Assembly: GCA_963729045.1 (NCBI GenBank)
Contig: CAVSMN010000018.1
Span: forward strand, 78,964-142,963
Length of the DNA: 64,000 nucleotides
Reading direction: 5' to 3'
Origin: an uncultured Nitrososphaeraceae archaeon
Lineage (GTDB): Archaea; Thermoproteota; Nitrososphaeria; Nitrososphaerales; Nitrososphaeraceae
Under the pieces are notes generated by a model, which was not told the DNA's origin, made no database searches, and saw nothing but the letters and a program-made list of their open reading frames with translations. Below, in pieces: positions 29,515 to 58,197 of the stretch. The first letter of the stretch is position 1, and the number at the start of each line of letters is the position of its first letter. The position numbers were made by a program, and so were the translations under genes.

Positions 29515-29949
29515 AATGATTAATACATTATGATATCGGAACATATAAACAAATTATTCATAGGAACCAAGTTAACTATGTTTAACCAATATGGTATTTC
29601 TAACGAAATCCTTTGATTCAATTATGAAGTTTGATTTGATTTGTATTGAAAAGACATATCTTTATCTAAATTATGCTTTGTATTTACCATATCACACCAG
29701 GTCATCAGTATTTAAAAACTTGTTAAATAATCTCTATTTTACAATAATGCAAATCAATCCTAGTAGTACAAGTATCAATTCTAGAGAATATAGACTGGAG
29801 GTAGAGGTTATAAAGTATAAATGAATCGAAAGTACACTTTATCATATAACAATTTTCATGTAAATCTTATTCTAAGGTATTGATCGCATTTTATTATACT
29901 TATATTATGTCCTTCACATTGGACCTAAAAAAATTCAGTCATGAAGTAA

Positions 29950-29988
29950 ACCCATGGGATCAAAGTTCCTAGTGGCACCAAGGTTCTA
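29950..29988 (+). repeat. Dispersed repeat, arm type A, with left flank shared with 58091-58163
   Basis: acccatgggatcaaagttcctagtggcaccaaggttcta. Confidence 0.8.
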
Positions 29989-30250
29989 TCATACACTAGG
30001 CCGATATTTTCCAAATATCATAATTAAAATATTGTCGATAAAACATTAGACAATTCAAGATGGTATCAAACTGTGTCTTACCTTTTCAACTTTTGATTAT
30101 TGTCAATACTTTCTTTTCTTTTTGAGCATAGTATTTGACACTAAATCTATATCATGTTCAAAAGACTAAACCTTAAATACTTTTTTCACATTGATTCTAA
30201 CATGAGGAAACAAAATTTAGGATATTGTTTTACTAAGAGGGACAAATACC

Positions 30251-30550
30251 ATGGTTAAAGTAGGGCTTTATGTTAAATTGGAAGCAAAACTAGGCAAAGA
30301 AGATGAAGTAGAACAGTTCCTCAAAGATGGATTACCAATAGTTCAGGAAGAGCCAGATACTGTGGCATGGTTTGCAATTCGCCTAGGACCATCCACTTTT
30401 GGAATATTTGATGTTTTTCCAGACGAATCTGGTCGACAAGCTCATCTTTCAGGACAAATTGCTGCTGCCCTAATGGAAAAATCTTCGGATCTACTTGCAA
30501 GCCCCCCATCTATTGAGAAGATAGATATCATTGCATCTAAACTTCCATAG
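30251..30550 (+). CDS. Antibiotic biosynthesis monooxygenase (ABM) family protein
   Basis: V.LEAK.GKE.EVE.FL, EP.T..WFA, FGIFD.F.DE.GRQAHL.G. Confidence 0.88.
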   Translation: MVKVGLYVKLEAKLGKEDEVEQFLKDGLPIVQEEPDTVAWFAIRLGPSTFGIFDVFPDESGRQAHLSGQIAAALMEKSSDLLASPPSIEKIDIIASKLP

Positions 30551-30987
30551 CTGGATCGCTTCTGGATCCAGTTGGGAACCTGTAGGAGAACACTTATTAA
30601 AATATCTATTGTTGACTCATTTTTTTAGATGCGGTCTCGATAATGTAATTTGATTAGAACCTCAATTCGGTCATGCAACGCAGTTCTCTTATGAATTAGC
30701 AATTCACGGATGGGCCGGTTTTCTTTCTTTTTCTTCTTCCATAATTACAGTTACGACAATTACTTTCTTAATTTGATCTAATCTGATATAAAATATGCCC
30801 TAAGCCGATCAAATCAAATTGCAAATGCAAAACAAATTGAATTTGATGATGAATATAAGAATATTTAACATTCACATTATCCGGATTAGGTCATTTTTAT
30901 GTAATATATTTTCTCTTACTGATTTTCCCTGTACCTTACGATTTAACTTTAAATCCTACATAAGGGAATATATAAAGATCATAAAAT

Positions 30988-31989
30988 ATGCGAAAAGGTA
31001 TTATCTATTGCTCCATGCTTATTTTCTTTTCAATTTCCTGTATGATTTTTGTAATTTGTGCAGATGCACAATCGCCAACTAACAATAGTAAGGACATCAG
31101 TGGTATTTACTTGTCAGACAAGCAGACTATTTATCATGTTAAACAAACAAATAATACAGTTTGGATATTAGGGACTGATGCTCCAAATGTTGAGTCCAGC
31201 ACCATTGCAAACATTTTTAGTGGAACGTTAGAAAATAACATTAGCAAGATAACTGGAAAATGGATAGATTCTCCATTATCAAATAATACTAACAGTGGGA
31301 ATGTTGATTTTAATATTTTGATGAACGACTCAAATAATAATATAACTTTAACTAAAATTCCATCAACATCAGGATCAAGCAACGTTTATCCGGCAACTAT
31401 ATTGGCCAAATATGATCCCATTCTTCATGGTCCATTAACAATTTATGTGTCAATGGAAAATTTATTGATCAATGAAGCACGTGCTCCTACTTCCGATATT
31501 TTATACGTTGGTATAAGCGGTCAAAAGAATAATGACAATCCTTTGACCGCAACTAAATACTTGGGAGCTAGAGGAGATGGTGCAAACATAACAACAAACC
31601 TAAGAATTGGTCCATTTACATTTAATAATGAAAACGATTCCCTTAAAGTAGAAATTTTGGGACTAAATAAGGCAGACAGTACAACATCATTTACATTAAT
31701 CAACCTTAGAGATACTCTTATTCAACTAATGGAACCATCATACAATATTTCTGATCTGGTTCAGGCGACAAACGTCATTAGGTCCTTATCTCCAGGATTA
31801 ATTCCAGGAGGATGCAACGGTTTGGTATTCATAGATGAGATACCTCTGTCATCTGAATTTTTAAGAAATTCAACTGCCCTTAACGGAGAACACATTATAG
31901 AAAAAACTTATCCTGGAACCACAAGTCCACCCGGATGTGGACCACCTTCACAGTATATCGTTAAACTATCCATAACTACTCATAGATAA
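30988..31989 (+). CDS. Secreted hypothetical protein
   Basis: Signal peptide (ADA-Q), Asn/Ser/Thr-rich, 333 aa. Confidence 0.7.
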   Translation: MRKGIIYCSMLIFFSISCMIFVICADAQSPTNNSKDISGIYLSDKQTIYHVKQTNNTVWILGTDAPNVESSTIANIFSGTLENNISKITGKWIDSPLSNNTNSGNVDFNILMNDSNNNITLTKIPSTSGSSNVYPATILAKYDPILHGPLTIYVSMENLLINEARAPTSDILYVGISGQKNNDNPLTATKYLGARGDGANITTNLRIGPFTFNNENDSLKVEILGLNKADSTTSFTLINLRDTLIQLMEPSYNISDLVQATNVIRSLSPGLIPGGCNGLVFIDEIPLSSEFLRNSTALNGEHIIEKTYPGTTSPPGCGPPSQYIVKLSITTHR

Positions 31990-31997
31990 TTCTACAA

Positions 31998-32043
31998 GTT
32001 CTCATCCATGAGGATTAAGTTCCCTGTGGTAGCAGGGTTCTTA
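31998..32043 (+). repeat. Dispersed repeat, arm type A (near consensus)
   Basis: gttctcatccatgaggattaagttccctgtggtagcagggttctta. Confidence 0.92.
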
Positions 32044-33071
32044 TGTTTTATATTGTGATTAATTATTTAGTGATTAACAAGAAGCAGAATGGTTTATTCT
32101 TGATACTCTTTGTTATCATTGGATTATATTCAGTACATTTACTAGGTGAATTTTCAAGTGCAAAAGGAAGTGTAACTGGCGGTAATCAAGATAAAGTCTT
32201 TGTGATGTACGCTGGATCTCTTGTAAAGATATTTGAAGATGTACTTGGACCTGCATTTCAAAGCGAATCTGGATATCCATACGTCGGGGAAGGGAAGGGG
32301 TCTGTTCAAGTTTCAAATTTGATTAAGGATGGATTTAGAACACCAGATGTATTTGTTAGTGCTGGAACGGTACCAATGACAAGGCTAATGAATACTACTC
32401 CTCCCCTAGTAGATTGGCTTTTAAAGTTTGGATCAGCCGAAATTGTGATTGCTTACTCGCCCAATAGTCCACACTTTGGTGATTTAGAAAAAGCAAGAAT
32501 GGGTGAAATTCCATGGTATGAAGTTGTTTCTCAGGATGGTTTCAAATTTGGTAGAACAGATCCTGAGTTGGATCCAAAAGGATACTATGGAATTATTACC
32601 GCTGAATTAGCAAATTCCTATTACAATGATTCATCTATCAAGAATAGAATATTTGGAGAGGATAGAAATCCCAAACAGATATTTCCCGAAGAAACGCTTA
32701 AGACAGTGTTAGAAACGGGTTCATTGGATGCAGTCATAGCATACAAACATGAGGCCATATCAAGAGATCTTCCCTACATCACTTTACCCAACGAGATCAA
32801 TCTTGGTGATCCCACATATTCTGATTTTTACAAACATGCAAATTACACTTTGCAAGCTGATCAAAAAACAATTTACGGGGAACCAGTTGACTTTTCAATC
32901 ACTATTCCAAAGACTGTTAAGAATATGGACGGTGCAATCTCGTTTGTAAATTTTGTAATTTCCAAAAATGGTTCACAGTTACTAGAAAGTCAGGGACTTA
33001 ATCCGATCAACATAACATCTGAAGGAAATACCGATGATATTCCTTTGTCTATAAAAGAGGCAATTTCGTAG
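32043..33071 (+). CDS. Molybdate/tungstate ABC substrate-binding protein (WtpA/ModA-like), no permease nearby
   Basis: YAGSL, GS...., DVFVSA, RTDPELDPKGY, LP.EINL; start probably GTG near 32070. Confidence 0.85.
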   Translation: MFYIVINYLVINKKQNGLFLILFVIIGLYSVHLLGEFSSAKGSVTGGNQDKVFVMYAGSLVKIFEDVLGPAFQSESGYPYVGEGKGSVQVSNLIKDGFRTPDVFVSAGTVPMTRLMNTTPPLVDWLLKFGSAEIVIAYSPNSPHFGDLEKARMGEIPWYEVVSQDGFKFGRTDPELDPKGYYGIITAELANSYYNDSSIKNRIFGEDRNPKQIFPEETLKTVLETGSLDAVIAYKHEAISRDLPYITLPNEINLGDPTYSDFYKHANYTLQADQKTIYGEPVDFSITIPKTVKNMDGAISFVNFVISKNGSQLLESQGLNPINITSEGNTDDIPLSIKEAIS

Positions 33072-33119
33072 GAATGCAGTCTTATCCCTTGTTGAGCAAA
33101 TTTGTATGACCGGGTAGCT

Positions 33120-33164
33120 GTCCTCATCCGTGGGGAATAAGTCCCTAGTGGTATTATGGTTATG
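33120..33164 (+). repeat. Dispersed repeat, arm type A
   Basis: gtcctcatccgtggggaataagtccctagtggtattatggttatg. Confidence 0.88.
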
Positions 33165-33230
33165 TTTTAATGCAATTTAATATCAAATCTTATCCACCCT
33201 TATTCACTATTAACACGGAATGATGGCCTA

Positions 33231-33254
33231 ATTCTCATTCTAGAGAATGAGAAT
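33231..33254. promoter_or_regulatory. Perfect 11-2-11 palindrome just upstream of TATA box
   Basis: ATTCTCATTCT AG AGAATGAGAAT followed by gcttttatgta ~25-30 bp before ATG 33289. Confidence 0.6.
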
Positions 33255-33288
33255 AGCTTTTATGTAACTTCAAACTCCCTTTTTATTA

Positions 33289-34109
33289 ATGGATAATAAA
33301 AATAATTTATCGAATATACATCTACTTTTAGCTATTGCTGGTATGTTGGTTTTATCCGGACCCATCTCGTATGTTTTCTCCAATAATGTATTTGCGCAAA
33401 CAAATTCTACTGATAGTGTTGATGTACAGCCAAATATTAATGCAGAAAGCATTTTTAACACCAAAACAATGACGTTAGGCAATAATGTAAAAAATCTTGT
33501 TATCCTCATTCCTAATGAAGGTCACCATGCTGCTGGTGAAGACAATGAAGCCAGATTTTTGGATCAACACTTTGTACCAGAAAATGCTGTAATTAGCACT
33601 GGAACTACCGTACAATGGTTTAACGGTGATGCAGGTCACGAACGTACAATAGACGTGAAGGACATTGACGGTAGCACTACATTTTTTAACACTGGAGAGA
33701 TAGTTGATAGTCAAGCATCAAATCCATATTACATTTAGTAATCCAGGTGTGTATAATTATGAAGCAGAAGGTGACCCAGGTGTAACAATGACTGGTTCTG
33801 TAACAGTAGGTAATATCCAATCATCAGTAACGCCGTCTAGCACAGCCATATCCACAAGTTCAAACTCTAGCAATATTGATACGGTGGGAATTTTGATGGT
33901 ACCAACGCAAAATATTGATGACTACATCCAACAGATAACAGGTGCAGGGATTACTGTTGACAATACATACGACTTTAAAGACTTGAGAGGTGGACAAGAA
34001 GGAACAGGTGATACACAAACATTAATTGTATGGACCACAGGTGGTAAAGATTTAGGTGAAACACTTTCATTCTTAAGTGGGCTTATCCTCTGAATTACCA
34101 TATAGTTAA
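33289..34109 (+). pseudogene. Secreted cupredoxin-fold-like protein, two +1 frameshifts (~33727, ~34080)
   Basis: IPNEGHH, F.P....I..GT.V.W.N.D.GH, F..PG.Y.Y, M.G.V.V; corrected C-terminus ..SELPYS*. Confidence 0.7.
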
Positions 34110-34192
34110 TAATTAACTATTTTTTATCAGGTACTTTTGATACCTCGGATTATTTGACAATTTACAAAATCATAATATGCCAATCTGGTCAA

Positions 34193-34234
34193 GTCGTCAT
34201 GATTGGGATTAAGTTCCAAGTGGTACAGGGTTAG
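34193..34234 (+). repeat. Dispersed repeat, arm type A
   Basis: gtcgtcatgattgggattaagttccaagtggtacagggttag. Confidence 0.8.
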
Positions 34235-34738
34235 GATTGTTCTAATCATCCAGTTTGAAAGACAAAGATATCCCATAATGATTAGTACATACACCAACAT
34301 GTTTAATAACAAAATCCTAGTTGAGAAGTATTAAAGGCATCAGTATGATGCGGCGCCGTCAACACCATGATTAGTTTTCAAGTCTCATGCTTTTGTGCCT
34401 ATGACCAATGGAACAAGTAGTTGCGAAGCTATTGCATTTGACGATAGACACTTATCACATGAATGTAGCCCTCAATACTATTTCCCTAGGACATTGTAAG
34501 AAATTCGTAACTAAAGTTAATAAACGATATACCTAATTCATTAGAGAATTATGAAATAATCATTTATTCAATTATTCAAGAATATTTCATCTTTTTTGAC
34601 AATAATGATACTTAGATTAGAGTTTAGACCAAACTCATCGATTTGGCTAAATAATGAATAACAAATAGATCGATGTTAACAAGTTAATAAAGTATGAGCG
34701 AAACTTATGCTATCAAATTAATAGTTGCCAAGACCATG

Positions 34739-34764
34739 GTCCTCATCTGTGCGGATTAGTTCTC
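34739..34764 (+). repeat. Dispersed repeat, left part/core only
   Basis: gtcctcatctgtgcggattagttctc. Confidence 0.65.
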
Positions 34765-35232
34765 AATAAACCTTGTGGAATTTAATCTGAAATCCAAAAG
34801 TTAAAGATTGTTAATCAGAATCAAAAATTATTTTATTAGATGTGAATCAATCTGCTTTTGTTGAGAAAGAATCAGAGCCATAATAAAGGCGAAATGTCTG
34901 GAATGACAGGAATCTGAATTCTCGCCTAAATAAAATGTCAGGAATAACCTTATGTCATGCTTTTTCTTAAATCATGTTATAATTTGAAATCCGCAATAGA
35001 AAGAGAAAATGTCCGACCTTTCATTCTCTTTTCAAAATCAATGGATAACAAAACAACCCGAGAAGATTACACTTTTTGAATTTTCTACATGATCTGTCAT
35101 TAATAATGATAAAGAGTGATTCTAATAATAGTTGAGTTGAATAGTTATTGTTGCCCAAATGGTCTTGCCTGACTTATAAAACTCTGAGCCTATGCAAAGG
35201 CCATTGAGAAAGTCTTTATTGAAATTGTCTCT

Positions 35233-36360
35233 TTACTTGTTATCTTTGTATAGGTCCTTCAAAACTTCTACCATGTAATGTTTCATCTCATTATAAGAAT
35301 CTTCCAGCTCTTGTGTTCTCCTTTTTACTTCTCTTCTTAGAATAATATTCCATCGTCTGAGTAAAATTACTAAGATAGTAACAGCAATAATACTGGCAAC
35401 AATAGATAAAGAAACGATTCCTGTTCTTTGTTCGGAAAGAGCATTGTCAATCTTTGAATATATTTCTGACGTGGGAGTCACTATTTGAATAAAAAATGAA
35501 GATTGATTGTTTATATATGCAGGATACTGAGTGGTTAATCTTTCACCACGACCATAATCATAAACTGCGAAACCTGATTTGCCGTTTAATAAATTCCGAG
35601 TCGCATCGTTCAAGATTTTATTGTGATTGATAAATTCTTGTGTATAATTGCCAAAAAAGTTTTGTCCCACAAGCGTCTCGCTTGCGCCATTAGCTAGCAT
35701 GAAACCGTTTTTATCGTATACTACCAAAAACTTCGAACTAATATCTTGAATATTTCCATAGTGTGCAAAAAATGGTATTGTAGGTATCGATGTTACAATC
35801 ATCCCCATATATTGACCCGTATCTTGATTCAGGATCGGATAAGATATGAATTCTCTGAGTATCTGTTGTCTCTCAAAATCGCCATTAGAGAAGACGGGCA
35901 AGTGGCCACTTGTTGTCTGCTTTACCCAGTCTCTAAATGAGAAATCTTCGCCGAGAACAAATTCTGATGGTTGGGTAGATATAGTATTTACCATAACATT
36001 GTTCTTGTCCAAAATAAACAGGCTATCTATCGTAAGATTGTGTTTATTATAAGCGTCATCCAAAAGCTTTGTAGTTTTGTCGTCTCCCAATTCTCCTAGC
36101 TGTATATAGTGCGAATTTGTTAAACCATAGAGCATTGACATAACTAAGTTGATATCTGAGCCTATATGTCGAGCAATATCATTTGTAGCTTGTATCTGAA
36201 GCTCTTTTTGTTGTTCAAATACAGTCTTTTTTAGGTCCGCAGCAGTCATATTTTGGATATAAAATAATAAGCCATTTGAGCATAAGATAATTGAAATAAG
36301 TGAGATGATACCTATCTCTCTTTCTTTTCCCAAAAATATATCCATAATAAGTACCTGCAA
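35233..36360 (-). CDS. Membrane protein with extracellular Cache-type sensor domain, no kinase domain
   Basis: TM - (G.DFSFRDW, PVFS, YDKNG, G.AVYDYG) - TM - short coiled coil EVKRRTQEL. Confidence 0.75.
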   Translation of the reverse strand: MQVLIMDIFLGKEREIGIISLISIILCSNGLLFYIQNMTAADLKKTVFEQQKELQIQATNDIARHIGSDINLVMSMLYGLTNSHYIQLGELGDDKTTKLLDDAYNKHNLTIDSLFILDKNNVMVNTISTQPSEFVLGEDFSFRDWVKQTTSGHLPVFSNGDFERQQILREFISYPILNQDTGQYMGMIVTSIPTIPFFAHYGNIQDISSKFLVVYDKNGFMLANGASETLVGQNFFGNYTQEFINHNKILNDATRNLLNGKSGFAVYDYGRGERLTTQYPAYINNQSSFFIQIVTPTSEIYSKIDNALSEQRTGIVSLSIVASIIAVTILVILLRRWNIILRREVKRRTQELEDSYNEMKHYMVEVLKDLYKDNK

Positions 36361-36484
36361 GTAGTTATAGTCGGGTATTAATAATATTATGCAGAGTCCG
36401 CCGTGGATGGGCTACTCGTTCATCTATAATCAAAAATAATGTGGTCCGCAATAGAATCTATTTATTAGTTATTTGACTGTGATC

Positions 36485-37161
36485 GGCGCTGTTAACTTAG
36501 GCGTTTAGCACTTCCTTGTTGTGTATTTTTACAAAAAGATTCAACCAGTTTTTGACATGATTTAGTTTACACTTCTCTTTACTACATGGAAAGTAATCGT
36601 CAAATCCTTCAGTTCGATCCTTGAAATACTGCATTGTTCTTTCTATCAGGCTTTTCTCTAATGAGGAATGAAAATGGTGTTTTAGTTTTAGGAATCTACA
36701 AGCTATTGGGTACCATGTTCCCAATCTGTAGATATAGAATGTTTTCCATGAATCTTGACCAAACCTGAGAGAAACCTTTCTGCTATTAGCATGTTCCTCT
36801 TCTTAGATATGGATAGTGCGAGAATCTGCCTATTTTCTGGCTCGATTGCTGCCCATAACCAGGTGTATTCAGAGCCGACTTTTATTAATGTCTCATCAAT
36901 GATGTATTCTGATATTTTTGTTCTTCTTGTTGAAAACCTTTCGAGGTTTATACTTTTAAATCCAATTCCAAATTGCAACGTGACTTCTATTGATAACATG
37001 TAAAAAGGACAATGCTTTGACAGAATTTCTGAGCGATAAACCAAGAAAGTACAAATAAAGACCATGGTAAATATGCTCTGAAGATATTCTCTTTCTTTTA
37101 CTTAACATAACAGAAATAAAGCATCTTTAAGCTAAAGATTTATAGTTAAGTTAACAGGATC
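36485..37161 (-). mobile_element. Degenerate IS6-family insertion sequence
   Basis: Transposase 37108-36497 (IIDET..KVG, W.AIEP, STD, IER) with stop and frameshifts; terminal IRs sharing ctgttaactta; 8-bp flanking direct repeat ctgtgatc/ctgtgatt. Confidence 0.9.
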
Positions 37162-37198
37162 CTGTGATTGATTTTCCTTTGTATTCTTTACAATACTT

Positions 37199-39635: not shown

Positions 39636-40030
39636 TTGAAATTACTGACAATCGATGACAACACCGACATCACTCGCTTATTGGCGGGGTATTGTAAGAG
39701 GGATGGAAATTGATTGTAAGGAGGTCAATGATGGTCAAAAGGGATTGTTTGAGATTCAAAATCGGCATTATGATCTAATATTTTTGGATATTGAAATGCC
39801 ATTTTACACAGGATTTGATATATTAAGACAATTGAAAAAACAAGGTGTGCGACATAAATGCATAATAATATTAACTGGATCCAATTTGAAGATAGATGAT
39901 ATCGCTGACTATATAGATGTTGGAGTCAGAGAAATCCTTAAGAAACCAATAGGATTGGATCAATTTGATAAGGATTGTGAAAAGTTATCTGACGAATGAC
40001 AAGTGGTCGATTCATCAAGAACACAAATAA
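39636..40030 (+). pseudogene. Stand-alone response regulator receiver protein, +1 frameshifts at ~39708 and ~39973
   Basis: MKLLTIDDN.DI in an upstream frame; YDLIFLDIEMP..TGFD, ILTG, KP. Confidence 0.75.
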
Positions 40031-40176
40031 CCTATTTGGGAGGTTATTCTATATCTTTGTTAACATAAACCATATCATAGCGAGTCGAGCCCACTAACCA
40101 TCAGTCTCACATGTCATTTTAACGCATTGTATTAGATTAAGTCAACCACTGATTACAATTGTGAACTACATCCTGT

Positions 40177-42853: not shown

Positions 42854-43109
42854 GTTTCAATCCTTGTTCTATTGGAATAGTCTTTCATAGCGCATGGTTC
42901 GTTATTATCCATTTTCTAATCCCATATCCCTAATTTTACCAATGATAATGCTATTGAAAATAATCCAATATAGAGAAAAATGACAAACCAGATAGCACCA
43001 TCTACTTCTTTTAGTCTCTTCATTTTATTCATTTCATCTGCTCCTTTTGTATATCACCATTAAATATATCAAGTTTCAATCCTTGTTCTATTGGAATATT
43101 CTTTCAGAG
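42854..43109 (-). CRISPR. Two orphan CRISPR-type 37-bp repeats (42854-42890, 43073-43109) separated by 182 bp
   Basis: GTTTCAATCCTTGTTCTATTGGAATA(G/T)TCTTTCA(T/G)AG, 35/37 identical; minus strand ends ATTGAAAC; no cas genes recognised in window. Confidence 0.65.
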
Positions 43110-43636
43110 AGCCTAAGTAGGCGTACAATTGAGCACAGTCTACATCATTTTTTACCATTATCCTCAGATGCGTCATCGGTATTAGCTATTTATGAGACCC
43201 TATTTAAAGATCCAACGCTCCATATTTTCCTATAACAACAACTAACGCACTTATTGCCAAAGTTTTGATAGAAGTCATTTAATAATAATTTGATTGACAA
43301 GATGCTCTTATTGTCACAAAGGACTTAACTCTAGTTATATCAGAGTCTGCAAAAGAATCTTTTAGGAAAGTAGGTCTAGCACAATTAGAAAATTTATTTT
43401 TTCAACTTAATAATTATGAAAATGATGATCAGATCCTAGATACAAAATATGTTACTGCTGACACTGATGAGCTGATTTTAGAAGCTTAATTTATCTAAAT
43501 AAAAAATATATTTTTTATTTCTCTTGTTTACTGTATTTTCCGAAACTCCTTAATAATACAATCTGCACGTTTGTATTTTAATTCCATTTACAAAACTTTT
43601 GATAAGCGATATTTCGTCAATTCCGCAAATATCATA

Positions 43637-43655
43637 AGTGGTAGTAGGGTTCTAA
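43637..43655 (+). repeat. Dispersed repeat, right arm (A) only
   Basis: agtggtagtagggttctaa, exact match to consensus 3' half. Confidence 0.7.
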
Positions 43656-43890
43656 TACCTTAATGATAACATATTTCTAAAATATTATTTTTCATAAGCT
43701 AGCCCAGGGGGCATTACAATAAACTTATTTTGAGCGTAATTTTGTTTTGTGTTAAGATCAAAAATAACTGAATTTTCAAATCGAACTTAAGAGGTTTTGG
43801 GTCGGATACGTAAAAGGGGGAAACAAATACTACGAAAAGTTCAAGTTAAAGATTTCATAAATAATTAAAATAAATTAGATGATGCATATT

Positions 43891-45789: not shown

Positions 45790-46482
45790 TAAAACGACAC
45801 CTACCCATCATATCCCTAATCAGATTACTACATGACAGAATATTTCATAAACCATTCAATTTCCATTCTAGTAAATAGAGTATTTATAAGTTTCGCTAAG
45901 ATCATTTAAAAGGCGTTTTCACCTACGATTAGAATAAATGATGAATCTAATGACCAAATAATTATTAATTTTGAGTAGGAAACACCAACAAACCTTATCG
46001 ATACAAAAGCGGATATAATATCGAAGTAACCCCATGAAGTCCTTGAAAGATTAGTAAAAGGTATCTAAAACAAAGGATCAATTGCATCAGATATTTATGG
46101 GTATTCTAACATAACTAGCGAATCTTGTAGAATATTTAGATATCTTAATGAGTAATTTTATTCAAATCAATTTTGTATAAAACACACCAAGTAACATAAT
46201 CCTCTGTTAGACCTTATATCGTTAGTTCTTTTACAAGTTAACCTGCCATATCTTTTATATTTAGATCAAAATCAATCTATTCAATGTCTTAAAAGATTTT
46301 TGTTTTACAAACCAGTAAAATTCTAACAATAATTGAGAGTTTTCTATCCTAAATAAATAACATATGATGACAGTCGTAAAAAATTTAGGAGTATCATGCC
46401 TAGTCGCCTCATCAAATGACAATTCTTTTTTCGTAGGCTATAATAATTGACCGTGTTCTCGGATTTGAGTGTATGTGGTTAA

Positions 46483-46533
46483 TCTCGGCCTTTGAGGATT
46501 AGTGCTGGTATCGGTGTTTTAAATTGGATTTCC
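46483..46533 (+). repeat. Dispersed repeat core with arm type B
   Basis: tctcggcctttgaggattagtgctggtatcggtgttttaaattggatttcc. Confidence 0.65.
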
Positions 46534-46592
46534 AAATCAATAGTAGAAAGATATACTTCAACTCTTTATAGATAAACCGGAATTATGATTGA

Positions 46593-49285: not shown

Positions 49286-49334
49286 ATATATTTCAAAATT
49301 TGTACCATTCTTTTTATAGCACCATTATTATATA

Positions 49335-49375
49335 GGACCAATGGGGATTAAGTTCCCTACAGTAGTAGGGTTATA
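49335..49375 (+). repeat. Dispersed repeat, arm type A
   Basis: ggaccaatggggattaagttccctacagtagtagggttata. Confidence 0.88.
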
Positions 49376-49466
49376 CCTTTGTTGAGAGAAGATCCTCTTA
49401 ATCAAAATATCAGTCCTTTATAGATTCTCTTGCATCCAGATTAGTCAAAGAATAATATACATTATT

Positions 49467-50849
49467 CTAAAACCTGTAAAAAATATAAAAAGCCAAAAAT
49501 AAATAATAAACAAAAACATTTAGTACCGTTATTAGTGACCCTATTTTGAAGAATTCTATAAAGGTGAACACCTTCAACCCTCTAGATTCAGCAGTTTGCA
49601 TTATGATGATGTTACTCGCAGCTCCAAATATAGTAAGATTGCCAGCAATGGTACTTGCTGAAGCTAACATTAGCCAAGCAGATACATCATCTTTATCAAA
49701 TCCATTCTCAATCATATAATGATTGTAGATGACGACGAACGGTACATTGCTTAGTATTTGACTCATAGTTATACTTATTACAGAAATAATTGCGTTATTA
49801 TGAAGCATGTTATCAGTCTCATAATAAGTATTATTCGGGTTAAGTGGAGGAAAATAATCCATCATTATGGGAATTAGTCCCGATGTCCATAATGCAGACG
49901 TGAAAATGAACATCGCAACAAAAAAGACTAAGACAGAATAATTTACATCTCTCAATATAGAAATTCTTTCTTTACACAATATGTATAATATAGCTGCACC
50001 GATAAGCGATATTATTCCGATATCCACATGAATCCCAAATAAAAGATGTGTTACCTCTGATAATATCATAGATCCGATAGTAGATAAGAAAACTAATACA
50101 GAAATTTTGGCAAACCTATTGGTAAATGAAAATTGGATTGGTTTTAACTTATTTGAAATTTCAACAGAGTTATATTGATGTTCATTATTGGCACCTTTAT
50201 CATCATTTTTTGTAGATTTCTCATCTAAAGGAGATCTTGTAACTAAAGATTTCTTATAATAAAGGTGCAAAACTAAACCACTTAAGAATAGATTTATGAT
50301 CGTAGGTGGCCCCAATATTGAAAGAAATGTTATAAAAGGTAAAGTCATACCGCTCTGACTAGCAATAAGTAGGTTTTGAGGACTTCCAATAGGTGTCATC
50401 GTACTCCCAATATTTATCCCAATAGCGATAGAAATCAATACTATTGATGGTTTAATTCGTAACTGGTTAGAAATTGATATAGCAAATGGAATTAGAAGAA
50501 TCGCTGCTGTATCGTTTACCACGAAAGCTGCTAAAAACCCTGACATGAATACAATTACTATAATAATATGATCCACCTTTTTGATTTTGAGTAAAACTGT
50601 TCCAACTACGTAATTAAGTACACCAGATCTTTCGAGAGCAGAAGTAATACTAAACATTCCAAAAAGAAACATTATGACTTGAAAATTAATTGATTCTAAA
50701 GCCGATTCTATAGGAATTATTCCAAATCCTAAAACAAGAATAGTTCCAATTGACATTATTATCCAGAATGGAAGATTATTTAGCCTTATCCTAGCAATCA
50801 TTAGGAAGTAAACCAACAAAAAAATGCCAAACGTAATGATTTCATTCAA
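49467..50849 (-). CDS. SLC13/ArsB/NhaD-family permease
   Basis: AFVVNDT, NIGSTMTPIGSPQNL, SNVP, AGNLTIFGAASN; many TM helices. Confidence 0.88.
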   Translation of the reverse strand: MNEIITFGIFLLVYFLMIARIRLNNLPFWIIMSIGTILVLGFGIIPIESALESINFQVIMFLFGMFSITSALERSGVLNYVVGTVLLKIKKVDHIIIVIVFMSGFLAAFVVNDTAAILLIPFAISISNQLRIKPSIVLISIAIGINIGSTMTPIGSPQNLLIASQSGMTLPFITFLSILGPPTIINLFLSGLVLHLYYKKSLVTRSPLDEKSTKNDDKGANNEHQYNSVEISNKLKPIQFSFTNRFAKISVLVFLSTIGSMILSEVTHLLFGIHVDIGIISLIGAAILYILCKERISILRDVNYSVLVFFVAMFIFTSALWTSGLIPIMMDYFPPLNPNNTYYETDNMLHNNAIISVISITMSQILSNVPFVVIYNHYMIENGFDKDDVSAWLMLASASTIAGNLTIFGAASNIIIMQTAESRGLKVFTFIEFFKIGSLITVLNVFVYYLFLAFYIFYRF

Positions 50850-51221
50850 ATCTGATGTACTTCCAAGATTATGTCTAATTAATGAGAAATTACTATTAAT
50901 TATTTATTCGATATTTCATTATTCTATCAATGCCTTATTATAGTAGAGTCAGTATTTTCTATTTCCTCTCTATACCCATCATTTTGGAAACGAAAAGAAT
51001 AAAATAATACTATGGTGAAACAAGGAGAAAGGACTATAAGAGTTTGACCATCATGAAAAAAAATACGAGGTCGTAAAATTTATTAACCGAAATTCGATTA
51101 TCTTCATTAGATATGGTTTGAATATTGTTTATGATTGGAGAAATTTTGACTGTATCCACATCACTCCTTGATGACGATATTCGTTAACGTTGATCTGGTA
51201 TAACGATCCTATTACTCAGCT

Positions 51222-51262
51222 GAGTCCATGGGGATTAAGTTCCCTGCGGTGGTGAGGTTTTA
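51222..51262 (+). repeat. Dispersed repeat, arm type A
   Basis: gagtccatggggattaagttccctgcggtggtgaggtttta. Confidence 0.88.
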
Positions 51263-51358
51263 ATACCAATAACAGTATAACTCTGGTGGCAGGATACTCA
51301 AACCATAAAGTTTATTTTTTTATACAGTCCGGCTGCTACTTAATATATGACAGCCTCA

Positions 51359-52015
51359 TCATGAGGAATACAATTTTTTGACCTCTGCGAACCGACGAGC
51401 CCAATCTGGTGGTACCTGATTATTTAGAATGGCTTCAAGCCGATCTAGGTACGCATGCCAACCAGGGGCTAAACTTAAAGCTGTTGATTTGGTGAGGCGG
51501 CTGTGAGTTAGTATAAGTAGTGTGTCCGTGTTTGAATCGCCATCCTGCTTGAGCTCCCACCGTATAACAGATTCAGGTTCTCCATTAGGGAACATTTGAT
51601 TAGGAGCGATATGCCACTCATACTCAAAAACATTGTGAAGATCCCAGATCAGAATATCTCCAGTTACGTGTGATCCTGATACGGTATTGACAAGATCAAT
51701 CGCACCACCATTGTACCCGTCGAAGGTTCCTCTATAATCGGGCAACCACCTGAATATCTCTTTTGGATCTGTAATTGCTTTCCAGACCGCCTCTTTTGGA
51801 TTAGAAAGTCGGCGTTCAAACTTTATTGCTCCATGCGTTTCTTCAATAGTTATGGTTCCTTTAGATTCAGTATTCAGTGTTTTATCGTTTCCCCTCATAT
51901 TTGAAGAAAAGCTTTGTTCAACATTTTCATTTGTTATTTCAAACTCTGTCATAAATACAATATACTTGTACAGATACTTATCTTTAGGGGAAGCAAAACT
52001 CCTAATATCGGACAA
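51359..52015 (-). CDS. SRPBCC/AHSA1-domain protein
   Basis: FERRL..P.E.VW.AITDP....W, L.LTH, GWH.YLD.L; start probably ATG near 51952. Confidence 0.85.
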   Translation of the reverse strand: MSDIRSFASPKDKYLYKYIVFMTEFEITNENVEQSFSSNMRGNDKTLNTESKGTITIEETHGAIKFERRLSNPKEAVWKAITDPKEIFRWLPDYRGTFDGYNGGAIDLVNTVSGSHVTGDILIWDLHNVFEYEWHIAPNQMFPNGEPESVIRWELKQDGDSNTDTLLILTHSRLTKSTALSLAPGWHAYLDRLEAILNNQVPPDWARRFAEVKKLYSS

Positions 52016-52046
52016 CTTAATTACTAGTTATTGCAACAATTAAATC

Positions 52047-53018
52047 ATGACTGAGGATGAAGGGATATTAGTCCTTGATAAAACTGATCTAACCATTCTT
52101 TCCACATTAGCTAGGAACTGCAGATCTTCTTATAGCAGCATAGGTTCAGAGGTTGACTTAACATCAAAGAGTGTAAAGGCACGAGTCAAGAAGATGGTAC
52201 ATCACGGGGTCATCGAAAAATTTGTAGTTAGAGTTAATCCTACAACTTTTGGATTCAAGGTAGCTATTGTACTTTTAAAAACTAGCAATGGAATAAATAA
52301 AGATGATGCCATTCGACAGGTAAAGCAACTTGGTGACCTTGCATATCATGTACATCATATGGGAAGAACATGTGTTGCAGCGCTAATCATCGAAAAGTCA
52401 TTAGATGATACAGCCATCCAATCATTGAATCATCTCTTAAAACCTGCAACCGTTGTGAGTATTAGCATTTTAGAACGACATGTTGAATCAATCGGTATAA
52501 GCGAAACAGATTTCAGAATAATAAAATGTTTACTGTTATTAGGGGCAAGGACAGAAATAGCAGATATTGCCAAGGAAGTTGGTATTTCTGAAAAAACCAC
52601 AACAAGACGTCTTATTAGGATGAAGGATGCAAGAATATTAGATTTCTCAATCCAGTGCAATCCATCTGTTATGGTAGGATATATTCAATTTGCCATTCCG
52701 ATTATCACTACAAAATTTCATCGTCGAAGTGTACTTGAACGCATGTACTCAGAATTTCAGGCAAATATTTTATACAGTCCTAGTGTGATTGATTCAGAGG
52801 ATAGACTGACTTTCGTACTCTTTAGTGAAAACATATTCACGGTGGATTCTGTTATAAATAAGGTAAGCTCCTTTGAAGGGGTTAAAAGTGCGGATGTATA
52901 CATACTTACAAAATGGCAATATCATGATGACTGGATAAGAAAAGAGATCAATAATAGAATACCCCGACGACAACCACTTTTGTATGGATCTATCAAAATT
53001 AATAATACCATTGATTAA
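52047..53018 (+). CDS. Lrp/AsnC-family regulator with two HTH domains
   Basis: LDKTDL.IL..L..N.R.SY and SETD.RII..L....R..I.DIA..VGIS..T..RRL. Confidence 0.85.
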   Translation: MTEDEGILVLDKTDLTILSTLARNCRSSYSSIGSEVDLTSKSVKARVKKMVHHGVIEKFVVRVNPTTFGFKVAIVLLKTSNGINKDDAIRQVKQLGDLAYHVHHMGRTCVAALIIEKSLDDTAIQSLNHLLKPATVVSISILERHVESIGISETDFRIIKCLLLLGARTEIADIAKEVGISEKTTTRRLIRMKDARILDFSIQCNPSVMVGYIQFAIPIITTKFHRRSVLERMYSEFQANILYSPSVIDSEDRLTFVLFSENIFTVDSVINKVSSFEGVKSADVYILTKWQYHDDWIRKEINNRIPRRQPLLYGSIKINNTID

Positions 53019-53039
53019 TAATACAATCGATTAAGAACA

Positions 53040-53102
53040 GTCCTCATCCATGGGGTATTAAGTTCCTCCACTGTGATAATGGTAACGGTAATGGGGTTCT
53101 AA
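53040..53102 (+). repeat. Dispersed repeat, arm type A with internal expansion
   Basis: gtcctcatccatggggtattaagttcct-ccactgtgataatggtaac-ggtaatggggttctaa. Confidence 0.82.
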
Positions 53103-53338
53103 CATATTTATGACTTAATTTACGGAGCTATAAATTGGACGGCTCAAATGTATTGCCTTCATTCATATATTAGAATAAATTATTTATTAAAATTGATTCT
53201 ATGATTCAGTTAACTCTGATTCAGTCAAAGTTAAATGATAATTAACAATTAAAAAATAGAACCCAATTTATCTGGAAAGAAATTGAATTCTTTGATATTA
53301 ACATAATCATAAATACTCTCATTACCATAAATTTAGAA

Positions 53339-53944
53339 ATGTATGATCAAATTCAATTCACAAACTTTTTTGGCACCTCTTTAACTCTTATTCTTATTAT
53401 TTTCTCTACAATCCCAATAACTTCTTACTCTTATGATGGATTCTCGGTCGCAAGAAATGATACATCTCATAATGTCTCCAACTCCTCCAAAGTTTTAGTC
53501 AATATAACTTTTGATTCCCTTTTTATCAACAATGATAAAAATCTATTCGGAAAAGGTTTATGGAATTTTTCAGTTGATATAAATGATAAACCCATAGAGT
53601 TACTTGTTAACGAAAAAGTAAATGAGGGACAAACAGTCAAGTTTAACGGAAAAAATATCTCATTAGTGATGCCTATATCAGATACTCTTTATTTGTTTTC
53701 TCAGCCTTATTATATTCAAAAAGCAGGAAAAATAGGTATTCTTGATTGGATATCTGAAAAGTATAATCAAACAAATAATTTTGGAAATGGAAGTCATATC
53801 GCAATTACGGATGATGGCAAAGAGGATACTGTTAATATTAATTTGGTGATTTACAAATACACTGCAATTATAAACAAGGACCCTGATTATGTTTTAAGAT
53901 ATCACATAGAAGCAACTCCTTTAAGCAACAATCTTGTAAACTAA
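53339..53944 (+). CDS. Secreted hypothetical protein
   Basis: N-terminal hydrophobic segment, many NxS/T sequons. Confidence 0.65.
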   Translation: MYDQIQFTNFFGTSLTLILIIFSTIPITSYSYDGFSVARNDTSHNVSNSSKVLVNITFDSLFINNDKNLFGKGLWNFSVDINDKPIELLVNEKVNEGQTVKFNGKNISLVMPISDTLYLFSQPYYIQKAGKIGILDWISEKYNQTNNFGNGSHIAITDDGKEDTVNINLVIYKYTAIINKDPDYVLRYHIEATPLSNNLVN

Positions 53945-54112
53945 TTTCTTCTTTTATAACGATTATCTAGAATAATTCATGATTTATGATTAACTTGTAC
54001 TATTGTTAATATGTTTACAATTACTGGTGGAAGTACCATCAGACTAACCTATTTTTTTCATCTTTAGCATGTTCACAATACAAGTTTAAAACTGCATCAT
54101 TAATTTACAAAA

Positions 54113-54164
54113 GTTTGCATCCGTCGAAATTAGTGTTGATATCGATATTTTAAAAGAGATTCTA
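54113..54164 (+). repeat. Dispersed repeat core with arm type B
   Basis: gtttgcatccgtcgaaattagtgttgatatcgatattttaaaagagattcta. Confidence 0.7.
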
Positions 54165-54365
54165 CTTATATACATTAATGGTAGAATTTAAAGATTATTG
54201 AAAATAATTATGCTTGATAAAATGTCTAACCATTAGTGATAATAATTGTTGAACAATAATTCTTGAATCGATTTCGACACATATGGAATTGTGGATATTT
54301 CATCATCCTCGTCTAAATCAATTGCTATAGATTATATTACATAATAGAGTTGATAGTGTATAAAA

Positions 54366-55541
54366 ATGGTAAACAAATCAGATGCGGGCAATAACAAATT
54401 TAGATCCTGGAGTGGCCCTAATTTATTAAATTATACACAAAATTACAAGAGACGTGTATTATTCTCAATTATTTCTGTATTTGTTTTATCTACAGTTTTC
54501 TTATTAATAAATGCGTATCCTACAGGTAATGCACATGCACAATTATATCCTTTTATCGCATCTACCCGCGGATCATTTGATACGACCAATGGGAATGAAA
54601 CTCAACAAGTAGAATTGCCTTCAGTTCTTTCAATTTTAAATATCAAAGATTGTCCAGGAGAACTAGCAATCTATGTTCACGGTATATGGGCCAGTGATTT
54701 GCAAGCAGAAGAGCAATCTGACAGAGTATCCCTATCATTACGAGATTCGGGTTATGATATTCCGCTGATAGGATTTAGTTGGGATTCAAATACTGCTTTC
54801 TCCCTTGATAACGCAACATTATCCTATCACGGATGGATGATAGCAAAAAAAATAGCTAATGAAAATGGTCCAATATTAGGAAAATTTATTTCTGATTATA
54901 AGACAGAGTGTCCTGAAGATAAGATAAGGATTATTGCGCATTCACTTGGTTCAAGAGTAACCTTATCGGCTCTGCAATGGATTCATGATAACATCAACGA
55001 ACAAAATGATAACAATACTTCGAAAGAAATAACATCAGTGCATCTGATGGGTGCTGCAGTTAACAATGACCAAATCTCAACAAACCCAAATGATTGTATT
55101 TCTTATATGCCTTATTTACCCTGTTCTGGAGATGCTATTCAATCCGAAGTAGGATATTTTTCTAATTTGTTTAATCCCGAAGATAACATGCTAGCAGGTG
55201 AAATAAATCCATTCTGTTGGATATGTGGTTTAGTAAAAAGCCCTTATGAATTAAGTGAAGGTCATAATGCCCTTGGAGCTTACGGGGCTGCATCTACTAT
55301 AGTTGTACCCTCTAATTTTGACGAAACGGATGTATCATCCCTAATCATTGTTGATACCGATTCAAATAAAGATGGCGAATGTGACATACGATATCCTGTT
55401 ACCCATATTTGTACAATTTCTAAAAACGGTGATAATCATATGGGGTACATGGGATATAGGGATAATATCTACAGACAGACTGTGCATGATAGTGGAGCAA
55501 TAAAACAAATAGTTGATGATTGGCAAAGTGAGAACAACTAA
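54366..55541 (+). CDS. Secreted alpha/beta hydrolase (DUF726/DUF900-like)
   Basis: IYVHG, FSWDS, AHSLG nucleophile, HLMGAA, DNHMGY. Confidence 0.82.
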   Translation: MVNKSDAGNNKFRSWSGPNLLNYTQNYKRRVLFSIISVFVLSTVFLLINAYPTGNAHAQLYPFIASTRGSFDTTNGNETQQVELPSVLSILNIKDCPGELAIYVHGIWASDLQAEEQSDRVSLSLRDSGYDIPLIGFSWDSNTAFSLDNATLSYHGWMIAKKIANENGPILGKFISDYKTECPEDKIRIIAHSLGSRVTLSALQWIHDNINEQNDNNTSKEITSVHLMGAAVNNDQISTNPNDCISYMPYLPCSGDAIQSEVGYFSNLFNPEDNMLAGEINPFCWICGLVKSPYELSEGHNALGAYGAASTIVVPSNFDETDVSSLIIVDTDSNKDGECDIRYPVTHICTISKNGDNHMGYMGYRDNIYRQTVHDSGAIKQIVDDWQSENN

Positions 55542-55594
55542 TCAGATATTATTGTGCAGTAGGAATGAATTTTAGAAATCAAGGTACAGCCCAA

Positions 55595-55637
55595 GTCCCT
55601 CCCCATGGGATTGAGTTCCGAGGGTAATAGAGTTTGA
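55595..55637 (+). repeat. Dispersed repeat, arm type A (diverged)
   Basis: gtccctccccatgggattgagttccgagggtaatagagtttga. Confidence 0.7.
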
Positions 55638-56007
55638 TAACATTAAATGATTTGAGTCTACGTATTAACCTTCATGAATGACGACATTAATTTATGTCAC
55701 ATCATTATTTGTGCTTCTAATCGGTCCTAACCCTTTGAATCGACCTTTACAATCCTCATTAGCGCATAATAGATTGGTGATTAAAATTATGATGTACATA
55801 TAAGCTGGAATTTCCAGGTCCCTATTAGAGATAAGTTTTGCATCCTTTAGGCTCATTTCAACTTTTGAGCCGACTTTTCAGATACTCTGTTGCAACACAT
55901 TACATACATTCATCATGTTCTTTTTAGTCGATATTATGACTTTGATAATATATGGTAATAAAACCCAATAATAAAAATCTTAAAAAGATGTACGTTATTG
56001 TAATATT

Positions 56008-56235
56008 ATGAATAAAACATACAATATTGTATTTGTAACAATCACTATCCTCTCAGTGATAATAGCTGCAACAGCTATAATGAGTGAATCCTTTGCATTT
56101 AACCCTGTCTCTAAGAAACTTAACGATCGTGCAAATGCTTTGGAGAAGGAAGCAGAATAGACCCAAAAAGATGGTAATGACGTAAAAGCATTTGCAAAGA
56201 GTTTGATGGCTAAAAAATTGAGAGAAAAGGCTTAA
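56008..56235 (+). pseudogene. Small secreted helical protein with in-frame TAG at 56158
   Basis: MNKTYNIVFVTITILSVIIAATAIMSESFA-FNPVSKKLNDRANALEKEAE*TQKDGNDVKAFAKSLMAKKLREKA*. Confidence 0.5.
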
Positions 56236-56914
56236 TTTTCCATATCACCATATTTTTCTTTAAGGCGAATAAGTTTTATCTTTAAAAAAGTAACTTCATA
56301 TGGACGAGCGTCTAAAGCCCAAAGCAATGTTAAAGCAACTTGATTTCTCTCATAACTATCATACTTGACAATAGTTAGAATATCTTTTTTCCCAAAGTTC
56401 AGTTTCTAAATATAGACTCGATCGCCTAGTTTTTTTTATCTATTTTTAAAAAGAGAGGTGTTTTCAGTCCTTTGATTGAAATATAGATTTCTTCATTATT
56501 AGGATTATCCCTTAATCCACTAAAGTCTTTAGTATTATGCAATCATCTAAAGAAATATTTTATTCTACAAAGATAGTCATACCAGGTTGTAACTCATCGT
56601 ATATCAGAATCTACTTCTGAATTCTTGATTTTGTATCTTGAAAAGCTAGAATTTGGTCTCTCTTAGTAGTAGATTGAAAGGATATAGCAAATTCTAAAAA
56701 CTTTCCAAAAGCTATTTTGGTTTTAAGATTATTATTTTGATATTTATCTGAAGTAGATAATAACTTCATAGAATTTTACTCTTGTTATATCCTAATTAAC
56801 AATAAATTTAACATAATTATTATTTTCTTATATTTCTGTTATGGACGCTAGGGATGGATGGTCAACCTATGGAGTTTATATTTACACCATTTTCTTATAA
56901 GGTAGTTATTTTCA

Positions 56915-57298
56915 ATGTTATCTGTTATGTTTAAAATAATGGATTTGGACCCAAATGTAAATATTAAAACACAGTTAGATGAAGAAAATACCAACCCTGT
57001 GATTCTATTAAACAAATTCATTGTAAAGCCAGAGGATATAGAAATATTTCTAAAAGTATTTGAGAATACTACCAAAATAATGAAACAACAACCTGGATTT
57101 ATATCAGCACAGTTACATCAAGGTATTGCTGGAAGCCATACGTTCTTTAACTATGGAGTTTGGGAATCTGCTGCACATTTTAAGCGGGCCTTTAATAATC
57201 CTGAGTTCCAAAAATCTATGGCTGAACTGCCACAGGACACTGTTATGTCGCCTCATTTGTTTAGGAAGGTGGCAATATCCAACATATGTGTAGATTAG
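56915..57298 (+). CDS. ABM-family monooxygenase
   Basis: PV.L.N.F.V, MKQQPGFISAQLH.GIAGS, WES. Confidence 0.85.
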   Translation: MLSVMFKIMDLDPNVNIKTQLDEENTNPVILLNKFIVKPEDIEIFLKVFENTTKIMKQQPGFISAQLHQGIAGSHTFFNYGVWESAAHFKRAFNNPEFQKSMAELPQDTVMSPHLFRKVAISNICVD

Positions 57299-57327
57299 AC
57301 TGCATATTTTTTTGTAAATTTCTATGT

Positions 57328-57951
57328 TTACTTTGAAATTACTACAAAAAGTGCTTTGGGTAACGGATTTAATGTGCCCTGATAAACGGTTTCCCTAATG
57401 CCTTGTACTTTGAATCTACTGTTTTCAAATGTTTTTTTTATCATATCATTTGAAAATCTGTAAGGTCCAGTATCTCTCACTGGTTCTTTTTCGCTAAAGC
57501 ATTTCAAGAACAATAGCCCTCCTTCTTTTAAAATTCGGTTTACTTCCTCTGTATATATCGACCTTTTTTCTGGTGAAATTACGTGGAAGCATCCTCTATC
57601 AAAAATAAAGTCAAATTCGTTACTGCTTAAATGAGAATTTACAATATCATCAACTATAAACTTGATTTTATTGTTCATTTTGTTATTATAACGAACTGAT
57701 GCTTTATGAATTGCTGTAGGGGACAGATCAGATGCAGTGACTTCAAAACCTCTTTCAAAAAGTTTTATTGCTTGTGTCCCAGGTCCGGTCCCAAGATCAA
57801 GGAAGGAGCCTTTTTTGATTTTCATTTTATCTAATTCTAATTCTAAATCATGATCAAGAGATTCATTATACCACGGCATGGATTTCACTTCTTGGTTTTT
57901 GTATAGAGTTTCCCAGTCAGGAAATGATCTTGTATTTTCTGTCATGAACAA
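57328..57951 (-). CDS. Class I SAM-dependent methyltransferase (TPMT-like)
   Basis: LDLGTGPG, D.S..AI, FDFIFDRGCFH. Confidence 0.9.
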   Translation of the reverse strand: MFMTENTRSFPDWETLYKNQEVKSMPWYNESLDHDLELELDKMKIKKGSFLDLGTGPGTQAIKLFERGFEVTASDLSPTAIHKASVRYNNKMNNKIKFIVDDIVNSHLSSNEFDFIFDRGCFHVISPEKRSIYTEEVNRILKEGGLLFLKCFSEKEPVRDTGPYRFSNDMIKKTFENSRFKVQGIRETVYQGTLNPLPKALFVVISK

Positions 57952-58146
57952 ATTCTATATAACATGGAATAATATTAACAAAGGCTCTGGATATTGTCTT
58001 TTAATTTCTGGAGTCATTAACGCATAGACAATCGTAAATACGGAGGATCGAACTCGTGATTAAAATTCCCTGAGTAATGAAATTGTTGTTGCATCTATTA
58101 TACGATATCCTTCAATTTGGGCCTAAAAAAAGGATTCAGTTATGAA

Positions 58147-58197
58147 GTGGGCCCGTGGGGATTAGTGCCGATATCGGTATTTTAAATAGAGATTCTA
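58147..58197 (+). repeat. Dispersed repeat core with arm type B
   Basis: gtgggcccgtggggattagtgccgatatcggtattttaaatagagattcta. Confidence 0.75.

Follow-up and report, generated by a model that had tools for sequence, protein, structure and literature searches.

Along 64,000 nucleotides of the genome of an uncultured Nitrososphaeraceae archaeon (the window; positions 78,964 to 142,963 of contig CAVSMN010000018.1 in assembly GCA_963729045.1), one short sequence recurs in the company of different neighboring sequences, and the question raised by this locus is how such an arrangement came about. An initial annotation had described a shared core with mix-and-match arms and had proposed that the copies are hybrid attL/attR-like junctions generated by recombination at that core. 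The proposal is supported by the tRNA identity of the core, by a series of junctions in which one flank meets four partners, and by the absence of linkage between arms. The repeats very probably represent attL-, attR-, and attP-like junctions of tyrosine-integrase recombination in a cassette array anchored at a lysine tRNA gene (tRNA-Lys), such that each repeat would be the scar of a DNA insertion beside this gene and dozens of scars would mark swappable cassettes. Here, G000 denotes the source assembly (2.85 Mb, 87% complete) and C18 its contig carrying the window; other G-numbered genomes are relatives, with G012 and G015 being complete genomes of the same genus, and X4 and X11 are metagenome runs whose contigs were compared with the window.

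The core and the 3′ end of tRNA-Lys

The core 12-mer CCRTGGGGATTA has two exact matches in the window and six matches at up to one mismatch, as compared to 0.42 expected, and none of 100 shuffles reached six; the 12-mer is thus less common than the initial annotation implied, yet far above chance. The presence of a shared core followed by different right arms is confirmed. The 9-mer TGGGGATTA alone was not above chance in the window (27 matches versus 20.4 expected); because this 9-mer is undistinctive, the signal is the entire dispersed site of 60 to 85 nt (consensus ..TTAGTAACAGTTCTCATCCGTGGGGATTAAGTTCCTWGTGGTAGTAGGGTTCTAATAC..) rather than the 12-mer. A profile built from 13 window copies gave 46 matches (E < 1) across the 2.85-Mb assembly, 28 of them on C18, with 12 on the minus strand at 0.8 to 30.5 kb and 16 on the plus strand at 73 to 140 kb.

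A genome-wide search with the core revealed one copy that continues into CGAACCCC, which is tRNA-Lys(UUU) with a 17-nt intron (contig C9 of G000, complement of 2999–3091). The 3′ end of this tRNA reads GCGGGCCCGTGGGGATTCGAACCCC on the other strand, and the GGGC-type left arm together with the core, GGGCCCGTGGGGATT, is its reverse complement at 15 of 15 nt, the GGGC arm being the acceptor 3′ strand and the core the T-stem. More broadly, the core GTGGGGATT corresponds to the T-stem and T-loop of the tRNA. Contig C21 differs, its copies having GGTTCGGTGGGATT, which is the end of tRNA-Lys(CUU), instead.

Left arms are of three kinds: “a” (AGTTCTCATCC, GTYCTCAT type), “b” (tRNA-acceptor-like GGGCCCG or, more commonly, GGGCGCG, one base off GGGCCCG), and an integrase-proximal arm ending in ...GGGCCTAAAAAAGGATTCAGTTATGAAG. 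Both left arms that had been named before, GTYCTCAT and GGGC, thus exist, with the correction that the GGGC type is tRNA acceptor sequence. The three right arms originally distinguished (A, B, and C) are all present as well, but this count was too low, as at least four exist, each with a short inverted repeat and a terminal GRTTCTA. Arm A accounts for 15 window copies by profile and one arm-only copy at 43637; arm B follows cores at 46490, 54122, and 58153, as had been annotated; and arm C is present at 17820 and 19134, likewise as annotated, behind degenerate cores that retain 7 of 12 and 8 of 12 positions. In the relative G015, arm C stands behind near-perfect cores. The fourth right arm, D (ACGRTTCAAGGTTGAA), was found in G015, in contig C1, and in an X4 contig.

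Junction series and arm linkage

Two window segments, 29886–29960 and 58091–58163, have a left flank of about 70 bp in common up to GGGGATT/GGGATC and then carry arm A and arm B, respectively. This earlier observation is confirmed, although the shared sequence is not a plain flank. It (..GGGCCTAAAAAAGGATTCAGTTATGAAG) is the stretch from the tRNA-Lys 3′ end to the start of an integrase gene in G012, G007, and G024, and since it fills the tRNA-Lys-to-integrase interval in these relatives, it is the integrase-proximal arm of an element (P′). The same flank and core lead into the tRNA body in G012, G007, and G024; into arm A in G020 (which has an intact integrase), in one metagenome-assembled genome, and at window position 29934; into arm B at window position 58147; and into arm D in an X4 contig of 1,451 nt, which matches 56971–58162 with five differences and continues into ACGATTCAAGGTTGAA. 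The two window representatives are the plus-strand sites 29886–29996 (diverged P′, decayed tRNA-Lys core, and arm A) and 58091–58197 (P′, the tRNA-Lys 3′-end core GGGCCCGTGGGGATT, and arm B), the latter an attR-like junction. Downstream of tRNA-Lys, G000 has a B-like arm in reverse complement and G015 a C-like sequence; B-type and C-type sites therefore appear to have their core flanked on each side by inverted arms.

On the right, breaks fall directly after GGGGAT(T); on the left, they precede CCATGGGG (at 51226), GGGATTA (in an X11 contig at 60889), or CGGGCCCG (contig C9 versus G012). The stretch present in every junction is approximately GGGGAT(T). Overlap regions of tyrosine recombinases are of comparable size.

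Linkage between arms was assessed with arm-only profiles, using the 61 matches at E ≤ 0.01 in G000 and two fetched arrays (matches at E > 0.01 were dropped). Right arm A was paired with left arm a in 12 cases, with b in 18, and with other left arms in 18, while right arm B was paired with a in five, with b in five, and with others in three. For the a and b columns, left and right arm types were unlinked (Fisher p = 0.72), and all four a/b by A/B combinations are present, so co-segregation of the arms fails. The GTYCTCAT-like arm does occur with each of arms A, B, and C, as had been claimed, the combination with C being represented by the a-like site at 17815. An exact TGGGG precedes seven of the 13 B arms.

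These junctions suggest a scheme in which a circular DNA with an arm-core-arm site would recombine with the tRNA gene or with an existing array site, the exchange point lying inside approximately GGGGAT(T). Every event would add one more unit and one more core in constant orientation, and repeated events would yield an array of 70 to 160 kb downstream of the tRNA, in which recombination between sites would delete or reshuffle units. The integrase encoded beside the tRNA is the likely agent of joining; the placement of the exact exchange point is deduced from the junctions.

Array anchoring, integrase, and probable cassette turnover

The orientation of the sites predicted that a plus-strand array would have, at its high-coordinate end, a tRNA gene on the other strand, and the two complete genomes agree. 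In G012, all 19 copies lie on the plus strand at 1.087 to 1.175 Mb, and tRNA-Lys(UUU), which ARAGORN without intron search calls Leu(taa), lies on the minus strand 0.9 kb past the last copy. In G015, tRNA-Lys lies on the plus strand at 514,164–514,255, an intact integrase gene of 417 amino acids (aa) begins 75 nt on, and 21 of 22 copies form the predicted array at 552 to 710 kb on the minus strand. In G000, the segment 2999–17117 of C9 is colinear with G012, G015, G007, and G024 and starts at the exact tRNA 3′ end, on the other side of which no homology with the four relatives was found. Adjacency of the C18 array to this tRNA-Lys in G000 is probable from site orientation and from the relatives. 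Overall, arrays of 70 to 160 kb lie downstream of the tRNA, with 20 to 70 sites per genome and one site per 1 to 9 kb.

A sequence-only covariance model of the site (R1) matched all 24 other genomes of the genus but none of 16 further genomes, each representing a different other family of the order. The records that contained several exact matches to the 15-mer were those of Candidatus Nitrosocosmicus or Nitrososphaeraceae, and the host genus is most likely Candidatus Nitrosocosmicus.

The adjoining integrase appears to belong to a divergent tyrosine recombinase family, which is common in the genus. Integrase P0001 matched PF00589 at E 6.5e-5 (23.2 bits, under the 27.1 cut-off) and phrog_216, “integrase,” at 3.4e-6; the alignment shows SSGIRV, HGFRK, and, late in the sequence, an HxY stretch, which may be read as the catalytic residues, while a sequence search for relatives with solved structures found none. 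A called tRNA gene adjoins 15 of 30 integrase loci examined. Next to the att site or tRNA, the gene is intact in G015, G007, and G020 and reduced to relics in G012 (where the N-terminal part remains beside tRNA-Lys), G024, and contig C9 of G000. In G000, remnants lie beside tRNA-Arg, beside tRNA-Lys(CUU), beside tRNA-Lys(UUU) (a 42-aa relic), and in an array to the left of the window (an 89-aa fragment). Searches of the arrays by tblastn with two integrases recovered one fragment in C18 (143 kb) and the tRNA-side relic alone in G012, and nothing in the G015 array at 535 to 720 kb. Set against roughly 20 to 40 recognizable 60-nt sites, zero to one remnants of a 1.2-kb integrase are the chief reason for thinking that most units have always lacked an integrase; such units would presumably have been moved in trans.

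The same numbers bear on a rival account, in which the sites are fossils of integrase-bearing elements that once integrated in tandem and decayed, with the mixing of arms arising from homologous recombination, gene conversion, and deletion rather than from ongoing site-specific exchange. Numerous degenerate cores and acceptor-like arms are consistent with decay, as are the broken tRNA-Lys-side integrases of G000, G012, and G024 and the finding that homology among the arrays of three species is confined to scattered, gene-size segments (0.3–2 kb), with no common cassette order or synteny. Under plain decay, however, a gene of 1.2 kb would be expected to remain recognizable longer than a site of 60 nt. 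The best-kept columns of the site, GGATTAAGTTCC, also lie at the core-arm boundary and not in the tRNA part, although the conservation of arm columns is biased by the way in which copies were found.

Evidence from present-day populations weighs further against a fossil origin. An X11 contig spans 51084–51226 and 53081–53501 with a single site between them, where 30 letters represent the core and an arm variant. The joint 51226→53081 thus denotes the absence of a 1.85-kb unit bounded by sites at 51208 and 53026; this unit carries AHSA1-like and AsnC-type genes, and the break is at the core. The two bounding sites (51208–51274, other left arm and arm A; 53026–53110, arms a and A with an insertion in the arm; both on the plus strand) are alike over about 20 nt only, with an indel. 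Alternative partners also exist at given positions. At 60863–60931 (plus strand), where the window has arms a and A, an X11 contig has a b-type arm up to 60889; and in contig C13 the unit enclosed by a B arm and by the b/A site before a CHRD unit is 0.8 kb long and different from the 1.7-kb unit of C18. Given this cassette-free allele and these alternative partners, decay of tandem elements is an unlikely explanation of the sites, and recombination by a tyrosine integrase at tRNA-Lys-derived sites remains the preferred one.

Several observations weigh against that preferred explanation. The array and tRNA-Lys(UUU) of G000 are on different contigs, and the oppositely oriented left array (C18:0.8–32 kb) may stem from an inversion between sites. 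PF00589 has no match in G000 at E ≤ 0.001, a null result attributable to the divergence of the family from this model, since a protein query did recover the relics; nonetheless, the integrase relatives in G000 are all truncated or broken. Covariation in the arm A hairpin is not significant and does not exceed controls. Breakpoints can be resolved only to about 7 to 15 nt because the arms are conserved, and clean site-to-site cassette loss was seen in one of the 14 listed joints, the rest being off sites or unreadable. The support consists of static sequence and of metagenome contigs (not reads), and such contigs may be chimeric where repeats occur; some of these junctions could also result from homologous recombination between the repeats; and strain mixture may contribute, G000 being 87% complete with near-duplicate contig ends.

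The window contains 21 sites in total, comprising profile copies, B-arm and C-arm copies, and one arm-only copy; all 21 are on the plus strand, as are all members of its repeat families D1 (10 copies), D3 (seven), D4 (four), and D7 (four). In addition to the sites located above, arms a and A occur at 352–424 (nhmmer E 1.4e-10), 7949–8015 (detected as a repeat family and by profile), 31985–32045 (E 3e-13), and 33115–33176 (profile), and in degenerate form at 16554–16611 and 22962–23019 (both by profile). Other left arms precede arm A at 2062–2125, 34187–34232, and 49319–49378 (all by profile), and the b variant GGGCGCG precedes it at 59821–59887 (E 1.7e-13). A weak site with arm A lies at 55600–55648 (E 0.0089), and arm A alone, with no recognizable core, at 43637–43663 (family D7). 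Arm B follows another left arm at 46470–46535 and arm a at 54105–54170, while the two arm C sites extend over 17815–17862 and 19134–19172.

All 21 sites lie outside open reading frames (ORFs) of at least 80 aa, two of them touching ORF ends by up to 5 nt, and they divide the window into units of 1.0 to 9.4 kb. The units carry ordinary accessory functions (transporters, thioredoxin/DsbD, peptidases, solute-binding proteins, and regulators), and the genes beside sites, including Pfam-supported ORFs within units, are found on both strands. Intergenic placement, together with the short inverted repeats of the arms and a run ending GGTTCTA, would also be expected of a cis-acting or RNA element (a terminator, a small RNA, or an element like the repetitive extragenic palindrome) that spread by other means and resembles tRNA-Lys incidentally. 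However, site orientation tracks the array and not the neighboring genes, which lie on both strands, and an Rfam scan of the window matched no family. Arm A was also considered as a conserved hairpin and rejected: the 79% pairing of its better register was equaled in 81 of 500 shuffles, the other register was worse, and covariation did not exceed controls. As tRNA-Lys anchoring, the adjoining integrase, and the junction series would all be left unexplained, a cis-acting or RNA element is highly improbable. No terminal inverted repeats or target-site duplications, features of miniature inverted-repeat transposable elements (MITEs) or insertion sequence (IS) remnants, were found around the sites.

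The left array, C18:1–32,100, has the same sites, all on the minus strand and thus tail to tail with the window array. The site-free 41-kb center of C18 (32–73 kb) encodes Ku, LigD, an ATP-dependent ligase, and metabolic genes; a recombinase was sought there and none was found.

Other features of the assembly were recorded alongside the sites. A second tRNA-anchored array in G000 consists of nine copies of the 25-nt 3′ part (T-arm and acceptor) of tRNA-Gly(CCC), located at C13:91,700–106,100 and at C10:149,254 and 168,926, spaced 1.3 to 3.6 kb apart in one orientation; the first copy alone is a full tRNA. Many G000 contig ends near-duplicate other contigs at 85 to 99% identity (e.g., C6/C14, C16/C19, and C1/C13/C18), which suggests strain mixture or repeats breaking the assembly. 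The C1/C13/C18 near-duplicates were considered for fine mapping of breakpoints and set aside, as the arms are family-wide, the C1/C18 homology does not stop at a site, and the gap in C13 consists of an IS-like insert. That insert, 682 bp at C13:7760–8442, is IS- or MITE-like: its ends are inverted (GGCCCTGTTAACTTA..), GCATCTGG is duplicated, and the corresponding position, C18:139,986, lacks it. The metagenome joints 47225→56868, 51266→58148, and 56754→59834, as well as shorter ones, have short sides or lie off sites and were not interpretable.

A many-copy family of 150-aa proteins is encoded at C18:41285–41737, 53430–53882, and 23981–24433 and in the G012 and G015 arrays; its members have a signal-like start and Q/S/N-rich repeats, and two copies share 100% identity across 517 bp. 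As a candidate mobility gene, this ORF was rejected, since it encodes a secreted, Q/S/N-rich protein that matches no family. In the window, a thiamine-pyrophosphate enzyme is divided between two ORFs (6016–7119, N and M domains; 7247–7846, C domain) and is possibly a broken gene. Three tandem 129-nt units (the second and third 95% and 64% identical to the first) lie at 29014–29400, left of the 29886 site, and a 40-nt repeat, GTTTCAATCCTTGTTCTATTGGAATA.., occurs at 42854–42893 and 43073–43112, 219 nt apart, with 93% identity.

Comparison with known systems

The genus, most likely Candidatus Nitrosocosmicus, comprises common ammonia-oxidizing nitrifiers of soil and skin, in which gene gain and loss are little understood. 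An array with dozens of live-looking sites would mark the location of flexible genes such as those for transporters, redox proteins, peptidases, and regulators, and would offer a defined recombination system of integrase, core of about 15 nt, and exchangeable arms. The sites also account for the breaking of assemblies of these genomes at this region. Beyond the junctions themselves, a form of gene capture like that of integrons is plausible, if tentative: integrase-less units of 1 to 9 kb with sites mimicking tRNA-Lys might be inserted, shuffled, and lost in trans by the tRNA-Lys-side integrase, with arms A to D and arms a and b interchangeable and with the array as the main flexible-gene reservoir of the genus.

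The kind of process is known, namely tRNA-targeted integration with tandem accretion, while neither its scale nor its presence in this archaeal genus seems to have been described; the published literature searched, supplements aside, contained no description of these arrays. The notable features are scale, modular arms, and the near absence of integrases. In Streptococcus, cis-mobilizable elements (CIMEs) are att-flanked units without int/xis that stand in tandem with an integrase-bearing integrative and conjugative element at a common att site. Known CIME accretions are bacterial and consist of two or three units, whereas the arrays described here have dozens. Among integrated elements of thaumarchaea, tyrosine recombinases are used, 39 integrations (57%) are in tRNA genes, and tandem integration is known (Krupovic et al. 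2019, PMC6563490); Nitrosocosmicus has zero occurrences in that survey, the portion of which available does not mention long site arrays around integrase-less units. A 2026 paper on skin Nitrosocosmicus mentions integrase-flanked islands, and the word “tRNA” is absent from its main text.

The classical integron was also considered, a system in which an IntI-type integrase acts at an attI site and at attC sites folded as single strands. An attC site is an imperfect palindrome of the form R″-L″...L′-R′ with GTTRRRY, and integron cassettes mostly share one orientation and lack promoters. The sites described here lack inverted R″/R′ ends and a long imperfect palindrome, and both of their ends carry GTTCT in direct order. 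Furthermore, the units carry genes in both orientations, the 3′ end of a tRNA serves as the primary site, and the integrase, which is often broken, adjoins tRNA genes in the manner of an element integrase and comes from a tRNA-targeting family. In spite of the same-orientation arrangement of short gene units with one site each, and of archaeal integrons having been reported (10.1101/2022.02.06.479319), a classical integron is almost certainly not what is present. The arrays nevertheless resemble integrons in having one orientation, small units mostly without a recombinase, a recombinase gene at the head by the primary site, and cassette content that is wholly different between species.

Comparable in targeting are the tycheposon islands of Prochlorococcus, in which tRNA-targeted integration proceeds with serial accretion (Hackl et al., bioRxiv 10.1101/2020.12.28.424599). 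According to that preprint, integration is likewise at tRNA 3′ ends, newcomers push older elements inward, partial tRNAs and integrase fragments are scattered in the island, and niche-gene cargo makes the island a flexible part of the genome. The arrays described here differ in their archaeal host, in their 20 to 70 sites per genome at intervals of 1 to 9 kb, in the retention of about 15 nt of tRNA between conserved arms of several interchangeable types, and in the near absence of integrase or replication modules within them. Recombination by a tyrosine integrase at tRNA-Lys-derived sites would provide an archaeal parallel to both integrons and the tycheposon islands of marine cyanobacteria.

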